From: a virus
Taxonomy: Duplodnaviria > Heunggongvirae > Uroviricota > Caudoviricetes
Strand: one strand, 5' to 3'
Virus record (IMG/VR): IMGVR_UViG_3300044673_000278
Location: 32,001-96,000 of that record
DNA: 64,000 nt
Shown: positions 33,322-42,843 of the stretch, in pieces
Layout: every line of letters starts with the position of its first letter
Position numbering within the stretch: the stretch's first letter is position 1
The notes under the pieces: generated by a model
Databases searched by the model: none
Told to the model about the DNA's origin: nothing
What the model saw: only the letters and a program-made list of their open reading frames with translations
Translations under genes and position numbers: made by a program

Positions 33322-34950
33322 ATGACCAGTCAAATCAATCCCAACAACATCGATGGGACTTACCCAGTAGCCGGCGTGCCCAACAACACGCAAGGCATGC
33401 GTGACAATTTTACTAATACTAGAACAAATTTTCAATATGCAGCGGACGAAATAACCGAGCTTCAGAGCAAAGCCCTGCTCAAAGCTGCTATCACCGGAAC
33501 CACTCTTGACAACAACATGAACAATCAAGAGATCTATGCTGTTCAATTGCGTGATCTCAGTTATGCATATTCTCAACTCACAGCCACTGCTGGCACAGTT
33601 AACATTGACTTTTCTGTGGGCCAATTTCAACAAATCAATCCTTCTGCACCTGTAAGTTTGAATTTTTCAAACTGGCCCACAGCAGGCACAGCAGGCTTGC
33701 TGTATCTTTTGATCAACATTACCAATGTAAGTCAAACTGTTACATTCCCCGCAGCAGTAAATCGCGGAATTGAAAAGATTGCTGGATCTCTGCCCGGCAC
33801 AGCCGGAGTATCCAATACTGTTACTTTTGGTGCAACAGGTTATTATGCATTTCAACTTTTGAGCACAGACGGTGGCGCCAATATCTGGATTTTTGATGAT
33901 GTTCGGCCCCCAGATACCTTTACATCCAACATTACCATTGCCAACACTTCTGTGAGCACTAGTACCAGTACTGGCGCCTTGGTAGTAACCGGTGGCACTG
34001 GTATGCAAGGCAATCTCAATGTGGGCGGCAACTTGAGAACTTACACCAGTGGTGGCAACATTGCATTCCAAGCCGATGTCAATGGGTTTGTCACTATCAA
34101 TGCCCCCACTGTTCCTGCCAACACCACAGGTGCATTGCAGGTAGTGGGCAGTGCAGGTGGTGCTTATCAACCAATTCTCAATGCCGGCGGTATGGTACAC
34201 GTAACCGGCAATGACGGTTCTGCATCTAGAATTACCAACGACAGTTTTGGTGCTGCTGCCAATGCTTATCCCCTAATGGTCCAACGTCGTGGTCGTGGCA
34301 CTGCTGCCTCGCCAACTGCTGTGCAAAGCGGGGATATACTGGCTCGCTACGGCGGAACTGGCTATGGCAACGTTGGTTATGTATTGGCTGCTGGTAACGT
34401 TGCGACCAACACTATGGATGTTGTGGCCTTAGAAAACTACACCACAGCCAATGGCGGCGCCTCTTTTCAATTCTACACTAGCCAAATTGGTGTGGTCAAC
34501 CGTACGCTCAGTGCCAACATCACTGCCAACGTTACCACATTCCCTGCCAACGTAGCCGCGGCCAACGTTGTGGTTTCTGGCACAGGCGGTGTATTCCTTG
34601 TCGACGGCGGCACCATGGGTTACGGTGCGGGTGCAGGTGGTACTGTGAGTCAAACTGGTAACAAGAGTTCAGGTGTTACATTGAACAAGCCCGCAGGCGA
34701 AATTACCATGCAAAACACAGCATTGGGTGCCGATGCTACAGTTCAATTTACTCTAACCAACAGCGCCATTGGCGCCCGAGATGTGTTGTTAATGAACATT
34801 GTAGGTGGCGTTGCTACAGGTGCTGCATACAACCTGGATGCCAACTGTTCTGCAGGTTCTGCTGTTGTCAGTGTGCGAAACATCACCGGCGGCTCGCTGA
34901 GCGAAGCTATTGTGCTGCGCTTTGTTGTGATCAAAGGATCAATTACTTAA
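33322..34950 (+). CDS. tail fibre-like virion protein
   Basis: MTSQINPNNID..YPVAG..N.TQG.RDNF; STSTSTGALVVTGG..GNLNVGG fibre motif; G/T/N/A-rich. Confidence 0.75.
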   Translation: MTSQINPNNIDGTYPVAGVPNNTQGMRDNFTNTRTNFQYAADEITELQSKALLKAAITGTTLDNNMNNQEIYAVQLRDLSYAYSQLTATAGTVNIDFSVGQFQQINPSAPVSLNFSNWPTAGTAGLLYLLINITNVSQTVTFPAAVNRGIEKIAGSLPGTAGVSNTVTFGATGYYAFQLLSTDGGANIWIFDDVRPPDTFTSNITIANTSVSTSTSTGALVVTGGTGMQGNLNVGGNLRTYTSGGNIAFQADVNGFVTINAPTVPANTTGALQVVGSAGGAYQPILNAGGMVHVTGNDGSASRITNDSFGAAANAYPLMVQRRGRGTAASPTAVQSGDILARYGGTGYGNVGYVLAAGNVATNTMDVVALENYTTANGGASFQFYTSQIGVVNRTLSANITANVTTFPANVAAANVVVSGTGGVFLVDGGTMGYGAGAGGTVSQTGNKSSGVTLNKPAGEITMQNTALGADATVQFTLTNSAIGARDVLLMNIVGGVATGAAYNLDANCSAGSAVVSVRNITGGSLSEAIVLRFVVIKGSIT

Positions 34951-36413
34951 CCAGTTTTGATCTTGCCCAACAACTGCTTGAGTTTGGCACTTTGAACATC
35001 AGCAGTGACTTTGGGCGCATCATCTAACTGGGCCATGGGCTTGTCCCAGGCATGTGTTCCCCCGGTAGGTTTTTCCCAACCCGGGGGTTTTTCTTCTCCG
35101 CCTTCTGCAGGCTTTACACTGGCCTTGGCTTTGATTGCTTCCATTACGCTGGGCTTGGGGCCTCCACGGAAAGTGTCTTGCTCGTCGCCGCCTGCGTCAG
35201 TGATGCGCATGGTATCAATGTTGTACTCTAAATCGATCTTCTGTCCCACGCCTGTGGAACTACGACTCTTCATACACTGAATCTGATACTTGCCACGCTC
35301 TTTCATAGCACGACTTGTAAAGATACCAAACACGTTGTCTGCTGTGTTGATCTTACTAATACCACCTGAAATATGACTGTGGTCAAATTCAATTTCTTCC
35401 ACAGCTGATCGATTCAACTGCGATGCTGTTACCAGCAAGATGCCCAGCTCTTTGGCCAAGTTACGCAGTTCTTCAGAAACATACTTGTCCTTAACAAACA
35501 AGTCGTTGGGGCTGACTTTTGCACTCACAGGCATCAACAAGTCCAAGTAGTCTACCATCATAAAGTCTACTTTGTGCCCGGTCTTGATCTGATACTCTTT
35601 TAAAAACGCACGGATATCGTTGATATTGCTCTGTGCTGGCAATGCTTTGACTTGATAGCTACCTGCTTTCTTGCCCACCATTTTGACTTTGAGTGCTGCT
35701 GTGGATTTGTCCTTGCGAATGTCTTTGGTTGACATGTCAGTCAACATGGCCGCGGTACGCAAGCCAGTTAGCTCTTCTGAAAGTTCTAAACTGATATATA
35801 CACCATGTAGTCCCATTTGCACCCAGTTCAGTGCAATGTTCATCATCACTAGACTCTTACCAGAACCCGAGCCACCAGCAAAGATGTTGAGTTCGCCTCG
35901 ACTGAATCCGCCATACAGCAATCTGTCCACTTGTGGCCAACCTGTGCTTACCTGTCCACCTGCATCAAAGTACTTGGTGAACATGCCTTCGGGATCAGCC
36001 CAAAAGTCTGTGCCAAGATCCTTGGTCAACGAGATCTGCACAGCATCCTTGACCAGTTTCTCCACTGGTTCAAACTCGCCTTTTTCCAACAAGTCTGCTG
36101 CTTTTAAGATCGCACGTTCCAGTTCTTGACGCTTGGTAAAGCCTTCAAACTCTTCCATGAACCAGTTGTAGTGACCCTCGTTGAGATCTGGCACTGGTTG
36201 TAGTTTGATACCTGTGGCTGCTGCAATCTGTGTTCGGTCTGGCAGTGTACTGAACTTGGCACTGTGTTCTTTGATAAACTCTGCTGCCTTGCGCAGACTG
36301 CGGTCAAAGTTTTCTGGATTGTAGATATTCTGAACACGCACATAGCTCTGTGCATCTTCTAACATCATTTCCAGGAACAGTCTCTGTACGTCAACTCCGT
36401 AGTCTTTTAACAA
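34947..36413 (-). CDS. DnaB-family replicative helicase (gp41-like)
   Basis: GGSGSGKS, SLELSE, VDYLDL, TASQLNR, MKSR. Confidence 0.95.
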   Translation of the reverse strand: MLKDYGVDVQRLFLEMMLEDAQSYVRVQNIYNPENFDRSLRKAAEFIKEHSAKFSTLPDRTQIAAATGIKLQPVPDLNEGHYNWFMEEFEGFTKRQELERAILKAADLLEKGEFEPVEKLVKDAVQISLTKDLGTDFWADPEGMFTKYFDAGGQVSTGWPQVDRLLYGGFSRGELNIFAGGSGSGKSLVMMNIALNWVQMGLHGVYISLELSEELTGLRTAAMLTDMSTKDIRKDKSTAALKVKMVGKKAGSYQVKALPAQSNINDIRAFLKEYQIKTGHKVDFMMVDYLDLLMPVSAKVSPNDLFVKDKYVSEELRNLAKELGILLVTASQLNRSAVEEIEFDHSHISGGISKINTADNVFGIFTSRAMKERGKYQIQCMKSRSSTGVGQKIDLEYNIDTMRITDAGGDEQDTFRGGPKPSVMEAIKAKASVKPAEGGEEKPPGWEKPTGGTHAWDKPMAQLDDAPKVTADVQSAKLKQLLGKIKTG

Positions 36414-37377
36414 GATTTTTCTTCCTTAATTCAATTTTGATTCTGCTGGTTTCTCTAGCTTGCATGATACTTAGTACGGTGGCCAAGCGACCATACTTCT
36501 TCACAGCATCATTGACATCCTTGCAATCTTCCCAATTGGGTATGCTCACTGCCCAACCCAACTCCACTGCACGATCAATCAGTTCCAAACCTGCTTGGTC
36601 TTGATCAGGTACCACTGTGACTTCTCGATCCAGGCTGCGAATCAGTCTGGCCTGCGCATCACTGATGGTGTTGTGCATCACTGCCAAGCCGCCAATGCTG
36701 AGAGCATCAAATATACCTTCCATGACCATGACATGTTGCCAAGATTCATGCTGTTGATCTATGCCAAACACATAGCCAGGTTGACTGTGATTGATGTACT
36801 TTGGTGATTTGTTGTCTAAGAATCTAGCAGTCCAGCCAATCAGTTTGTTGTCATAGGTGAATGGCACAGTGACATGTGGGCGAACCCAATGGATTCCATC
36901 ATTGCGTATGGCCGTGAGCATAGGAAAGTCTTCAGGCACACGTCGATCTCTAATGTAGTTCCAATACAAGGGCATGTCTGGTGTTATCAACTCCGATCCC
37001 GGTGGCAAATCATCTGACTCTTTGAACTCGATGCCTTGGATAGCATCTGACACACGCTTGCGATCATCGATGATGCCGTGTATGCTGCGATGCCTCAAAC
37101 TTTCCAAATTCAACACATCTATTTCAGCTTCGGGTACGCCCAACCAGCTCAACAGTCTACGAGCTTTGAAAGTTACTGTGCGCCCAAGAATAAAACTGGC
37201 TGTGTATCCGCAGTTGAAGCAATGATAGCTCCAACCCGATTCGTTGACTTTGAGTCCGCCGCGCTGACGTCGATCTGGATTTTGTCCGTTGTGTTGACAA
37301 CATACCGCATTGAAACTGATCCAGCCGCTGGGGCTGGATTTACGTTTTGCTGGCAAGTAAGTTTGTATGTCAAGCAT
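36391..37377 (-). CDS. DNA primase (gp61-like)
   Basis: Zn-binding CC.H...HCFNC; TOPRIM EGIFD, PDQD, KDVND. Confidence 0.9.
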   Translation of the reverse strand: MLDIQTYLPAKRKSSPSGWISFNAVCCQHNGQNPDRRQRGGLKVNESGWSYHCFNCGYTASFILGRTVTFKARRLLSWLGVPEAEIDVLNLESLRHRSIHGIIDDRKRVSDAIQGIEFKESDDLPPGSELITPDMPLYWNYIRDRRVPEDFPMLTAIRNDGIHWVRPHVTVPFTYDNKLIGWTARFLDNKSPKYINHSQPGYVFGIDQQHESWQHVMVMEGIFDALSIGGLAVMHNTISDAQARLIRSLDREVTVVPDQDQAGLELIDRAVELGWAVSIPNWEDCKDVNDAVKKYGRLATVLSIMQARETSRIKIELRKKNLVKRLRS

Positions 37378-38510: not shown

Positions 38511-38888
38511 ATGGGCAATAACTTATTTGAAAAGCTGACTGAAAAATACCCGTTTATAACGCTGTGCATATATGCCAACGTTGAATACATAGGTGTAGTA
38601 CAAAACAGAGATGATGCTGTGACCACTATCTACGACTTTGGTGCAGTGCAAAGTCAGCAAGACAAGTTGGATTTCCTAGAACTGGCCAGTCAATGGTGGT
38701 GGGAAAGCAACAGATCTATACCCATCAACATATTCTTACGCGGTGATTGGGACCGTTTCAAAGGCACCTTGCGTACCTTCTCAAACAAAGATCTTGAAAT
38801 CTTACACGGGCCTATATGCAGCCTTCAAGACATAGCCCGCAAAAAATCTAAACGCAAATCAATTACGCTGGTTCGTCGCATGGACTGA
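38511..38888 (+). CDS. hypothetical protein
   Basis: 125-aa ORF, WWWESNRSIPINIFL motif, basic tail. Confidence 0.8.
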   Translation: MGNNLFEKLTEKYPFITLCIYANVEYIGVVQNRDDAVTTIYDFGAVQSQQDKLDFLELASQWWWESNRSIPINIFLRGDWDRFKGTLRTFSNKDLEILHGPICSLQDIARKKSKRKSITLVRRMD

Positions 38889-39441
38889 GCAGATTCATAT
38901 GCAATGCCACAAGCCTTGCGTATGATACAGCATGTGACTTCTTGAACACAAATCCGCGGCTGGCATCTCCATCCCATACTGACGCAAATACTTCTGCCCA
39001 AGGCCTACGTTGCAAGTGTGCTTTGCCCGGACGAATAATACTGATAAATGCAGCCATTCTGGGAATAGAGTCGGGTCGCATTTGTTGCAGCAAATCTGTG
39101 TAGTTTCCTACGTGTACCAATTGAGCAGCCCAGGCACTGTCAGTCCATAAACGCTGCCAATCGGGTGTTTGTGCTAGCACTTGTTCATAATGCTCAGGAC
39201 TCTGCACCAAACTGTACACACTCATATTCAGCAAGTCGATTTTGAAATAGCCACGCTGTTCTGCTGTTTCATAGTCCAGTGCTGCACATCCATGCACAGG
39301 ATCTTGTGGTATGTCAGTGACATAGATGCCCGAGTTATGATGCCGCGGTCGTCCATTGACTTCTAGGCGTGCAGGTACATGGCGGATCAACGCCAGCAAT
39401 TTATCCCTGTCGGGCATGTCGATGTCAATGTCTGCACTCAT
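38863..39441 (-). CDS. minimal DNA polymerase III alpha (family C) palm/fingers fragment
   Basis: ADIDID, HNSGIY, GYFKIDLL, SIIRPG, FKKSHAVSYA. Confidence 0.85.
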   Translation of the reverse strand: MSADIDIDMPDRDKLLALIRHVPARLEVNGRPRHHNSGIYVTDIPQDPVHGCAALDYETAEQRGYFKIDLLNMSVYSLVQSPEHYEQVLAQTPDWQRLWTDSAWAAQLVHVGNYTDLLQQMRPDSIPRMAAFISIIRPGKAHLQRRPWAEVFASVWDGDASRGFVFKKSHAVSYARLVALHMNLLSPCDEPA

Positions 39442-40190
39442 AACTTTTCCAATTGAGGTATAATAATTTTTTCTGCAAAGGCTCTGTGTGCGTCCACTGA
39501 ATAATGACCAATCAAGGGTTGATCCTTAAAATCGATAGGCTCAAATCCTTGCTGATGGCACCAAGTTGTAAAACTGAACTTTTCAAAGTCAAAAAAGTTT
39601 TCTTCGCTGAGCTGTGATTTAAAAAAGTCCAGTAAATATTCTTCTTTCAGTTCCTCAGACATTGGTCCTTGAAAAATTAAAAATTTAATATCCAACTGTT
39701 TCATCAAAGTCTGAAACATCACAAGATCACACATGAGATTTATGCGTTCTGCATACGGGCTGTAGTAGTATGCACGACCTTGATAGTATTTGTCAAGAAA
39801 ATCATTTTGGTACTTGTTTGCAATCTGTTTTCCTCCCAACAACAAATCTCGCCAATTGTTTTTATGGGAAAACATGTGAGGACAAAAGTTAGACTCTGCC
39901 GGATCGGCGTTTGTTACATCTTCGTGCCATAATTCAAACCTTAATTCAAAAGACAACGAAATCAATGCAATTATTTTTTGTTCCGGATTCAACTGTCTTT
40001 GCTGAATTAGATCATGCACAGAAGTTCTGACGATGCGTCTATTACAGCTTCCCCTGATTGCATTATTAATCACAAACCCATTGAGATGCTGCCCAACCAC
40101 GTGAGCATAGGTATTTTCTTTAAGCGCAGGAAAAAAATTTTGATCGCTGTAACTGTCACCGTTACAATAAACCAGCGGATGATCGTTCAT
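39438..40190 (-). CDS. SGNH/GDSL-like hypothetical protein
   Basis: NGDSYS, NNA..GS.N, C-terminal GH....H. Confidence 0.6.
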   Translation of the reverse strand: MNDHPLVYCNGDSYSDQNFFPALKENTYAHVVGQHLNGFVINNAIRGSCNRRIVRTSVHDLIQQRQLNPEQKIIALISLSFELRFELWHEDVTNADPAESNFCPHMFSHKNNWRDLLLGGKQIANKYQNDFLDKYYQGRAYYYSPYAERINLMCDLVMFQTLMKQLDIKFLIFQGPMSEELKEEYLLDFFKSQLSEENFFDFEKFSFTTWCHQQGFEPIDFKDQPLIGHYSVDAHRAFAEKIIIPQLEKL

Positions 40191-40223
40191 TTTGTACACA
40201 GTTCTATAGTCATAACGGCACGT

Positions 40224-41363
40224 TCATGCTCTAGTAGGGAAATAATCTTGTCTGGTCCCGGTCCTATCCAGATCAGTGGTTACACAGTGTATGCCGCCAT
40301 CCCAAAAATATCTGTGCCTAAGTGGAACCACATGCGGAGTCATTCCGTATCTCCCCAGCGCATCAAATACAGATTTGTTGTAGTTGAAAACTATGACATT
40401 TTTTGGATCGACGATCAACATATTGACATCAAATACTGTTTCCTCCACATACCCTGTCCAATGCTTTAGCCATTGCTCTACCACGTTGATGACATCTTGA
40501 TCGTGTTCAAAACCTGGTATCCACCAACGACCGTTGTTTTTCTGTTTTAAATGAAGAAAAGAACTAACTTTTTCCCAGCTCTGACTTGGTAGGTATACTA
40601 CTTCCCATCCAGGGAACGTGTCTGCATATGTGGGCACGTCTTTAAGACTAATGATCAAGCCTGGCGCAACTGGACAGAATACACCATCGCTATGACCTCC
40701 TGTATTGACTACATGATTTCTAGTGGTAGTGAACTCTGAGTCTATCAATTTCTGATACTGTTGTCTATCTTGAGTGTACGAATCTGTACCAAAATACAAA
40801 TCTTTACCAACCCTGGTTATTAAAGCTCCAGGTGCTGTACTGATCCGCTGATTGCTTACAATCTTATTTCCTGATTTTTCTATTGTATCAAATATTTTAT
40901 CATAACTTGAATAAAATTTCTGAAATTTTGATAGATTGTGTAACTCGTTGCATTCATCTTGAATTCGCTGTGGCAACGAATTGAACTCTTCAACAGAAGT
41001 ACATTTTGGCCAAGACGGATCTTTGACTGCTTCGTAAAATTTCTCAATGTTCAGTTGATAACCTTTGTAAAAAACTTCGCCTATCATGATCATGTGATCC
41101 CTGGGCGTCATTGGTGGAGGCAAATATTTGCCGCCTATAAAGATATCTTTGAACTCAGGAAGCTCGGGCCTCAAAACTCTAACGCCAAATTCTTCGAGCT
41201 TTTTAATTAATAGTTGATAGTCTTCTTCGGTTTCCTGTGCTATCTTCTCAAACAGTTTTCTTACATGTGGTTTAGTTATCCACTGATAGTATTCGGGTGG
41301 GTATGTTTGTCCTACCACACACAATTTTAAAGGATCCCAGTGCTGATATACGCTTAATGTCAT
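40224..41363 (-). CDS. second amidinotransferase-family protein
   Basis: HWDPLK, PRDH, GHSDG, FDVNML, DGGIHCVT. Confidence 0.85.
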   Translation of the reverse strand: MTLSVYQHWDPLKLCVVGQTYPPEYYQWITKPHVRKLFEKIAQETEEDYQLLIKKLEEFGVRVLRPELPEFKDIFIGGKYLPPPMTPRDHMIMIGEVFYKGYQLNIEKFYEAVKDPSWPKCTSVEEFNSLPQRIQDECNELHNLSKFQKFYSSYDKIFDTIEKSGNKIVSNQRISTAPGALITRVGKDLYFGTDSYTQDRQQYQKLIDSEFTTTRNHVVNTGGHSDGVFCPVAPGLIISLKDVPTYADTFPGWEVVYLPSQSWEKVSSFLHLKQKNNGRWWIPGFEHDQDVINVVEQWLKHWTGYVEETVFDVNMLIVDPKNVIVFNYNKSVFDALGRYGMTPHVVPLRHRYFWDGGIHCVTTDLDRTGTRQDYFPTRA

Positions 41364-41714: not shown

Positions 41715-42389
41715 TTACCATCCTGCTGTTGTTAGTATTTCTCTAGCATAGGCTAGATCTTCTGCACTGGAATCAAACTTGCTTTGCCACACATCACTGT
41801 TGATGTAGGGCCACACAATCTGTAGTTGCTCTGAACTCAACTGTGTCAAGAACTCTTGTCCAGATTCTGAATTGTAAATTACCCAAGGACTGATACGTCC
41901 TGTGGTAATAGCATGGCACGTACCGTTTGCACTGCCATATCTCAAACAATCCTGTGGCCTTGCAGCATTGCGTTCTGCCCAGTCTATGCTGTATTCTACA
42001 CTGCGAGCCAAGGCGTCTGCAACTGATTCGGCCTGCAAGTACCAAATCAAATACTCTGTGTAGATTCGATCACTGCACCATTGATCAATTTTCTTTTGGT
42101 TTTTCAGCAACCAATCGATCATTCTGGCCGGATTGATCACCACCGTGTCCACACAGTAACGTCCGAACTTTACAAATGCTCGGTAGTACGGAGACTCAGC
42201 AAAGTCATCGTAAGTACGTGACTTGGTGCTTTTGTTCATGAGCCTGTAGAACTCAAGATATGCTTGAAACCCAATCTGAACTCCACGTTCGTGCTGTTGC
42301 ATTCTACGCCGCTTGGGCTCGCACATGTGTGCAACAATGGTGCTTTCTCTAGCAAATGTTTTGTGACAGAACTCACACTGGTACGTCAT
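41715..42389 (-). CDS. zinc-finger-containing hypothetical protein
   Basis: CEFC..F......AHMC at the N-terminus. Confidence 0.75.
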   Translation of the reverse strand: MTYQCEFCHKTFARESTIVAHMCEPKRRRMQQHERGVQIGFQAYLEFYRLMNKSTKSRTYDDFAESPYYRAFVKFGRYCVDTVVINPARMIDWLLKNQKKIDQWCSDRIYTEYLIWYLQAESVADALARSVEYSIDWAERNAARPQDCLRYGSANGTCHAITTGRISPWVIYNSESGQEFLTQLSSEQLQIVWPYINSDVWQSKFDSSAEDLAYAREILTTAGW

Positions 42390-42390
42390 T

Positions 42391-42843
42391 TCACTTGCGT
42401 TCTTGGCCTGCAGACTTAAAGTAAGCATCAATTTCTTTCTGTGATACCAACTGCATCATCACATCAATTTCATCGTCTTTGTAAGTGGGATATATTTCTT
42501 GCAGTGCTTTGCGCTTGGCACTGGCCCCGGCTTCTTTTTTCTTGGGCGGGATCCAGTTGTGCTTGGGTGTGCCCATGTCTGGACTCACTGTGGTTGCCAA
42601 CAGCCATTGCAGCTTTTTGTGTGCGGCTGTGTTCACTGCAAAGAAGTGTTTGTTGAGTCGTTCGTTGGTAGAGATCACGTAAAACTCTTGCAGATCACGT
42701 GAACCTTCCACAGCCGAACCCCAACGAATCATGAGATAGGGCGAAAACTTTTTGCGTTCTTCTTCTGTGAGTTCGTCGTAGAATCGTCGATTCTTGCGAT
42801 CGAACTGTCGCATTTCGTTGCCGATGTTTAGTTTATCACTCAT
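42391..42843 (-). CDS. probable clamp-loader small subunit (gp62-like)
   Basis: FSPYLMIRW..S, N..., LQW, NWI.PKK pattern; replication gene context. Confidence 0.6.
   Translation of the reverse strand: MSDKLNIGNEMRQFDRKNRRFYDELTEEERKKFSPYLMIRWGSAVEGSRDLQEFYVISTNERLNKHFFAVNTAAHKKLQWLLATTVSPDMGTPKHNWIPPKKKEAGASAKRKALQEIYPTYKDDEIDVMMQLVSQKEIDAYFKSAGQERK

Follow-up and report, generated by a model that had tools for sequence, protein, structure and literature searches.

The C-terminal unit of a split minimal DNA polymerase III alpha in an uncultured jumbo phage

Introduction

What can a phage protein of 192 amino acids be, if it carries the catalytic motifs of the bacterial replicase DnaE, the alpha subunit of DNA polymerase III? 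The question is raised by a reading frame in the stretch of 64,000 nucleotides analysed here (the window, positions 32001-96000 of a viral record of 251,693 bp). Proteins of this kind are already known, and were published in 2021 (PMC7824862). In that work Iyer, Anantharaman, Krishnan, Burroughs and Aravind (Viruses 13:63, PMC7824862) described a split minimal Pol III alpha in the group 2.2 (T4-related) jumbo phages; they predicted from the sequences that its N-terminal unit binds the NTP and its C-terminal unit binds Mg and the template, and proposed that this enzyme and the one of family B may act together in synthesising one strand or in repair. We found no report in the literature on the enzymatic activity of any member, and both the PA5oct omics paper and a 2026 review of jumbo phages are silent on the split enzyme.

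Homology, fold and conserved catalytic residues identify the reading frame in the window as the C-terminal unit (C-unit) of such a split minimal Pol III alpha. We consider it likely that it belongs to a DnaE-like enzyme whose active site is rebuilt across two chains, a predicted nucleotidyl transferase. The window copy is one more member of the family to which we add supporting computations, and not a discovery, as the idea has been in print since 2021 (PMC7824862).

The reading frame and its motifs

A first-pass annotation, made from the letters alone, had described the frame as a reduced DnaE with the motifs in DnaE order, heavily shortened spacers, a coupled start, a clean stop and all three catalytic aspartates. 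This description held in every point, and only the strand, which is the minus strand, was missing from it. The coordinates are collected in Table 1. The start codon ATG shares letters with the stop codon TGA of the upstream reading frame (ATGA), as can be read directly from the sequence; a short GGAAAAG lies upstream and the C-unit's own stop codon is clean.

All five motifs could be located by comparison with E. coli DnaE (MG1655 record): A3-DIDID-M9 pairs with P400-DFDVD-F406, H34-HNSG-38 with K510-HAGG-514, F66-KID-69 with V552-KFD-555, I136-RPG-K140 with F638-RPG-P642 and F166-KKSH-170 with F756-NKSH-760. In other words, the catalytic metal ligands D401 and D403 of E. coli are present as D4 and D6, and the third catalytic aspartate, D555 of E. 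coli, is present as D69. It is conspicuous that all four spacers between the motifs are shorter than in E. coli DnaE, i.e. 31, 32, 70 and 30 residues vs. 110, 42, 86 and 118. About 79 residues are gone at the position of the thumb and about 88 within the fingers, and the deletion in thumb and fingers totals about 190 residues. The GRGS motif and the PHP, clamp-binding and OB domains were found neither within the reading frame nor adjoining it, so the first-pass annotation was also right in listing them as missing.

Table 1. Coordinates of the C-unit, its motifs, the neighbouring genes and the colinear segments of the record. Positions are those of the window unless kb values of the record are given.
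Feature	Position	Strand	Evidence or remark
C-terminal unit of split minimal Pol III alpha (P0001, 192 aa)	38863..39441	-	ORF, PHROG 11778, profiles, AF2, VIA-align
Codons D4-I-D6-I-D8 = E. coli D401/D403/D405	39418..39432	-	motif position, conservation
Codons H34-H-N-S-G38 = E. coli K510-HAGG-514	39328..39342	-	H35 and G38 at least 90% conserved
Codons K67-I-D69 = E. coli K553/D555	39235..39243	-	invariant; aligned to E. coli VKFD
Codons R137-P-G-K140 = E. coli R639-P-G641, fingers	39022..39033	-	profile alignments, conservation
Codons F166-K-K-S-H170 = E. coli F756-NKSH-760, fingers	38932..38946	-	profile alignment; K167 and H170 at least 90% conserved
DnaB-type replicative helicase, conserved downstream neighbour	34947..36413	-	PF03796 E 5.1e-21, PHROG 19 E 6.5e-65
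Toprim DNA primase, conserved downstream neighbour	36391..37377	-	PF13155 E 7.3e-7, PHROG 47 E 1.6e-31
125-aa ORF	38511-38888	+	PHROG 11637 E 7.4e-31; converges on the C-unit gene, 26-nt overlap at its 3' end
253-aa gene without family match	39438-40199	-	between the C-unit and the 117-aa and zinc-finger genes
379-aa gene	40224-41363	-	PHROG 25854; between the C-unit and the 117-aa and zinc-finger genes
238-aa C2H2 zinc-finger protein, conserved upstream neighbour	41715-42431	-	PHROG 11058 E 1.1e-57
Own record, colinear with G001 213-341 kb	1-143 kb		protein-level colinearity
Own record, colinear with G001 2.5-94 kb	155-241 kb		protein-level colinearity
G001 ~95-213 kb (roughly 119 kb), without counterpart in own record			protein-level colinearity

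Sequence homology to DnaE

With an E-value of 2.5e-51 the protein falls into PHROG 11778 ("DNA polymerase", profile length 197), residues 3-186 being aligned to profile positions 7-192. Searches with the single sequence are blind to the wider relationship: no Pfam family was matched at E-values up to 10, and phmmer found no match in the PDB. Profiles were therefore needed, and a profile of 81 diverse homologues with 29-63% identity to the query (A1) was used. Its nine best matches in the PDB are all Pol III alpha, among them the E. coli (2HNH, E 2.9e-6), Thermus aquaticus (2HPI, 2.2e-5) and Mycobacterium tuberculosis (5LEW, 4.7e-5) enzymes, and the KxD, RPG and KSH motifs are aligned in these matches. 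When A1 was compared with the proteins of 379-2000 aa in a collection of 5.8 billion sequences, 20 of 20 matches were full-length DnaE (best E-value 3.8e-8) that carry PF07733 and PF17657. Finally, hhalign placed residues 55-140 on E. coli 541-642 with an E-value of 2e-5. The likeness to DnaE is far beyond chance. We note that the protein does not fall within canonical DnaE, since it has no PF07733 match, its thumb is gone and about half of its fingers is deleted.

Structure model of the C-unit

The AF2 model of the C-unit, built with A1, is compact and has a mean pLDDT of 95.4 and a pTM of 0.88. The Foldseek search ranked 17 chains of C-family polymerases at the top, with probabilities of up to 1.00 but with an E-value of only 2e-3, which is weak, so the fold assignment rests on VIA-align and on the sequence profiles. 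VIA-align gave Z-scores of 9.7 to PolC (3F2B, residues 970-1295), 9.4 to the Taq enzyme (3E0D, 460-837), 9.1 to M. tuberculosis DnaE1 (418-807) and 8.2 to E. coli (2HNH, 399-780). Over the C-family polymerases as a whole the Z-scores lie between 6 and 9.7, the alignments span residues 1-190 and each includes about 185 of the 192 residues; the best unrelated fold reached a Z-score of 3.6. The whole chain can be superposed on the C-family polymerases in this way, and the model thus corresponds to DnaE residues 399-780 minus the thumb and half of the fingers. D4-D8 lie on the strand formed by residues 5-9 and D69 lies on the strand 68-72. The first-pass annotation had proposed a comparison with the DnaE palm by HHpred or AlphaFold, and both the profile (2.9e-6) and the superposition on E. 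coli (Z 8.2) speak for its reading.

In terms of domains, the C-unit keeps the second half of the palm (Pol-beta fold), i.e. the DxD strand and the strand of the third aspartate, together with shortened fingers that include RPG and KSH. It is without the PHP domain, the thumb, most of the fingers and the clamp-binding and OB domains. Measured against the Pol-beta superfamily, the DxD and the third aspartate are found in the C-unit and the GS motif is not in this chain. According to the models described below, it is predicted to be supplied in trans by an N-terminal unit.

The partner unit and the fused form

The N-terminal unit (N-unit) is a separate gene of 170-180 aa in relatives of the phage. 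It bears GVGRGSS and lies tens of kb from the C-unit in GAP32, PAC2 (PA5oct-like) and Phosso; in GAP32 and PAC2 the distance is 34-44 kb, and the gene adjoins GroES and the clamp loader. A tblastn search with the N-terminal half of a fused homologue (P0172, see below) detects it as a gene of 170-175 aa in the jumbo phages that have the C-unit, where it carries the annotation Pol III alpha. PF07733 matches the N-unit above the cut-off in Phosso, PAC2 and GAP32, and the family is also matched in the metagenomic relatives G001 (342,865 bp, 99% complete), G002 and G003. All six of the relatives that are at least 58% complete have the N-unit, which supports the proposal of the first-pass annotation that we are dealing with a streamlined or split family C polymerase with a partner encoded elsewhere.

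The alignment of the N-unit family (A2) shows an invariant G-x-GRGSS and falls on E. coli residues 318-394 (hhalign, E 8.8e-7). The Foldseek E-value of the N-unit is weak, 0.16, and its assignment rests on PF07733 and hhalign. The N-unit of G001 (P0291, 176 aa) ends in EFLR. The unit ends at the equivalent of E. coli residue 394/395 and the C-unit starts at the equivalent of 399, so the break lies between E. coli residues 395 and 399; the cut falls inside the palm, with the nucleotide-binding GS element on one side and the strands that bind the metal on the other. As there is no room for intein halves, a non-covalent association of the two chains is to be expected.

A natural fusion of the two units exists. 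P0172 (375 aa; L098:1066-2193, plus strand) is encoded on an AT-rich metagenomic contig of 2.4 kb; its first ~186 residues carry VGRGSSSAS, the second half is a C-unit, and the linker is about as long as in DnaE. It is the sole fused form among the best 150 C-unit representatives at 50% identity, and a search of viral contigs gave no relative of it. It may be the ancestral unsplit form or a secondary fusion.

The complex was predicted from the C-unit of the window (with A1) and the N-unit of G001 (with A2), i.e. each chain had its own alignment; the C-unit of G001 itself is 80% identical to that of the window. The ipSAE was 0.91 in three runs, as compared to 0.01 for the best of three controls, and solved complexes attain the mark used for this score in 58 out of 80 cases, mismatched pairs in 2 out of 110. 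At least 96% of the contacts are shared between the runs, and the pLDDT of the partner is at least 90. Residues 137-150 of the N-unit (IWGVGRGSS) touch residues 2-10 of the C-unit, i.e. the DIDID strand, as they do in a palm of the Pol-beta fold. The model supports the pairing of the two units, but its high score may simply reflect the likeness to solved single-chain DnaE structures.

Gene neighbourhood

The gene order zinc-finger protein, C-unit, small opposite-strand gene, virion protein, primase and DnaB helicase is kept from Phosso to GAP32. The window keeps the synteny of Phosso, PAC2 and GAP32 apart from two added genes, which encode the 253-aa and 379-aa proteins of Table 1. Both are missing from the C-unit locus of G001, in which a homologue of the 379-aa gene is found at ~130.7 kb. 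This suggests a local insertion or rearrangement, and the ATGA coupling of the C-unit is in consequence lineage-specific.

The first-pass annotation had placed the frame in a T4-type replisome. This setting is supported by the primase and DnaB helicase nearby and by the presence of a family B polymerase in five of the five relatives searched (GAP32, PAC2, Phosso, G001 and G002); in the record of the window itself no family B polymerase was detected (see below).

Some further neighbours deserve mention. A small opposite-strand gene, as seen in the window, likewise follows the C-unit in Phosso, PAC2 and GAP32. The C2H2 zinc-finger gene directly adjoins the C-unit in PAC2, and its product may serve the thumb-less enzyme as a partner that binds DNA. 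Exonucleases of the DnaQ/epsilon type are encoded in GAP32 (NC_019401.1, 208086-208601) and PAC2 (PP408249.1, 164451-164912). None was found in the record of the window or in the 99%-complete G001, so an exonuclease of this type can be ruled out as an obligatory proofreading partner, and no fixed proofreader is apparent.

Predicted function

The mechanism that we propose runs as follows. Since the GS half of the palm (GVGRGSS) is a separate protein of ~175 aa, the C-unit would be unable to bind the nucleotide by itself. The two chains would associate non-covalently, the GS strand lying against the DIDID strand, and one active site would be formed over two polypeptides. Most likely such a rebuilt enzyme would be active as a nucleotidyl transferase, and it would probably be a DNA polymerase that fills short patches or extends primers, at work alongside the primase-helicase encoded nearby and the replicase of family B. 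It is difficult to see, however, how an enzyme that has neither a thumb nor domains for clamp binding and proofreading could synthesise DNA processively. The position of the C-unit near the primase makes a role in primer extension possible by analogy. The fuller proposal, namely that the predicted two-chain polymerase and the adjacent primase-helicase serve in primer extension, in lagging-strand synthesis or in repair with a handover to the family B replicase, is a tentative one to which we give a rather low probability. If true, these phages would have a two-polymerase replisome that mixes bacterial-type and archaeo-eukaryotic-type enzymes.

The two chains might also form an active enzyme that is no templated DNA polymerase but a template-independent or specialised nucleotidyl transferase, acting for example in tailing, in nucleotide modification or in the synthesis of a small nucleotide product in phage-host conflict. 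The first-pass annotation had named priming, repair and nucleotide modification as candidate roles. The Pol-beta fold is common to many non-polymerase transferases, the C-unit has lost the thumb, the clamp-binding domain and roughly half of the fingers, and the relatives that were searched already carry a family B replicase, all of which would fit such a role. On the other hand, the RPG and KSH motifs that are retained in the fingers are those of DnaE and are strongly conserved, and in very distant phages the C-unit is fixed beside the primase and helicase and the N-unit beside the clamp loader. We consider a non-polymerase transferase unlikely for these reasons.

Conservation of the catalytic residues

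K67, D69 and P138 are invariant in A1, and D4, D6, D8, H35, G38, R137, K140, K167 and H170 are at least 90% conserved. In a set of 78 sequences, made up of 77 close relatives and the window copy, none of the twelve key residues varies.

This pattern bears on the idea that the protein derives from DnaE but has fallen catalytically silent, a scaffold or decoy which binds DNA or parts of the host or phage replisome without any chemistry. A protein so much reduced could be suspected of having such a role, and the literature that we found reports no activity. But the three aspartates and the adjacent lysine are invariant or nearly so at 29-63% identity, as well as in each of the 78 closely related sequences, and the C-unit is without the regions by which DnaE binds the clamp, tau or epsilon. 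A silent scaffold is thus very unlikely, and we retain the reading as a probably active two-chain enzyme.

The missing part of the record

The first-pass annotation had suggested a search of the full genome for a separate GxGRGS reading frame and for a gp43-type polymerase. In the 251-kb record the outcome was negative for both, and in the relatives it was positive. More specifically, no N-unit was detected in the 251,693-bp record by PF07733, by GRGS-type motifs over all reading frames, by phmmer with the N-terminal half of P0172 or by an HMM of four N-units; the record also yielded no family B polymerase (PF00136) and no GroES, clamp loader, MazG or PhoH.

The record is estimated to be 72% complete, and its colinearity with G001 indicates which part is missing (Table 1). 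The block of G001 that is without a counterpart holds the family B polymerase (at 141 kb), and besides it PhoH, ClpA, the clamp loader and GroES together with the N-unit (186-191 kb, the N-unit at 190 kb). In other words, the record is most probably without an N-unit because it is without the equivalent of this block. It is a fragment of a genome of ~340 kb, and the absence of the N-unit is best taken as a limit of the assembly and no evidence of loss. For the phage of the window we infer the pairing from the N-units of its relatives.

A true loss of the N-unit, with the C-unit acting alone in this phage, would fit the empty searches of the record just described. It is highly improbable, given that the whole block with the N-unit, family B polymerase and clamp loader of G001 is lacking from a 72%-complete record, that the colinear G001, 99% complete and with a C-unit 80% identical, has the N-unit, and that the same is true of six out of six relatives of at least 58% completeness.

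Selection and spread

Among the loci of close relatives in viral contigs, 77 out of 80 have an intact reading frame of 184-195 aa. The dN/dS ratio (Nei-Gojobori) has a median of 0.08 and a 95th percentile of 0.15 over 1094 unsaturated pairs. The first-pass annotation had named neutral decay or frameshifts among the homologues as what would speak against its reading; what we see is purifying selection, with nearly all loci intact. That the frame is a decaying remnant of a full-length dnaE, as its length of one sixth of the normal might suggest, is refuted by the low dN/dS (~0.08) together with the fixed length (184-195 aa in all 78, window included), in addition to which there are thousands of intact homologues and a compact model of high confidence, and this possibility has a negligible probability.

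The C-unit is widespread. By tblastn a homologue was found in 96 phage records, all of them jumbo phages, including the PA5oct-like phages, Atu_ph07, Phosso, the GAP32/Rak2/121Q-like phages, XaC1 and SCTP-2; some of these records are annotated as "DnaE-like DNA polymerase III alpha". The metagenomic homologues form at least 7960 clusters at 90% identity and 352 clusters at 50% identity, and nearly all of the latter are 185-215 aa long. The N-unit and the C-unit are of similar abundance in the metagenomes (at least about 7972 and at least 7960 matches, respectively).

Comparison with known systems

Compared with the split Pol III alpha of Iyer et al. 2021, the window copy is alike in family, in length, in starting with the DxD strand, in the synteny with primase and DnaB and in the separate N-unit of its relatives. 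Nothing essential differs: it comes from an uncultured phage, the block with the N-unit and the family B polymerase is missing, and two genes are inserted.

With the full-size enzymes, i.e. DnaE/Pol III alpha (2HNH, 2HPI/3E0D, 5LEW) and PolC (3F2B), the C-unit shares the palm strands, the three aspartates, the adjacent lysine and the RPG and KSH motifs, which are homologous. It differs from DnaE/Pol III alpha in its size (192 aa vs. about 1160 aa) and in being without the PHP, thumb, clamp-binding, OB and tau-binding parts, and the GS half of the palm of the phage enzyme is on another polypeptide.

Split DnaE proteins are known from cyanobacteria, e.g. DnaE-n and DnaE-c of Synechocystis, whose full-size halves are joined covalently by a split intein. 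Both systems make a DnaE from two distant genes, but the phage units have no room for intein halves. A replisome with two polymerases is known from B. subtilis, which uses DnaE and PolC. There too a DnaE-type enzyme stands beside a different main replicase, and the likeness is a functional analogy only, as the main replicase of these phages is of family B.

Should the split enzyme prove active, no smaller family C polymerase core would be known, and its active site would be the first of family C to be divided between two non-covalently joined chains; it would offer a minimal model for the working and the evolution of Pol III alpha. One would then also have to ask what makes large phages, in their thousands, maintain another polymerase of bacterial type when they have a replicase of the T4 type.

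A further possible instance of a split gene concerns the family B replicase. In PAC2 (PP408249.1, 202949-206726) PF00136 is matched in two open frames of 825 and 379 aa, so that the family B polymerase of this phage seems to be split as well.
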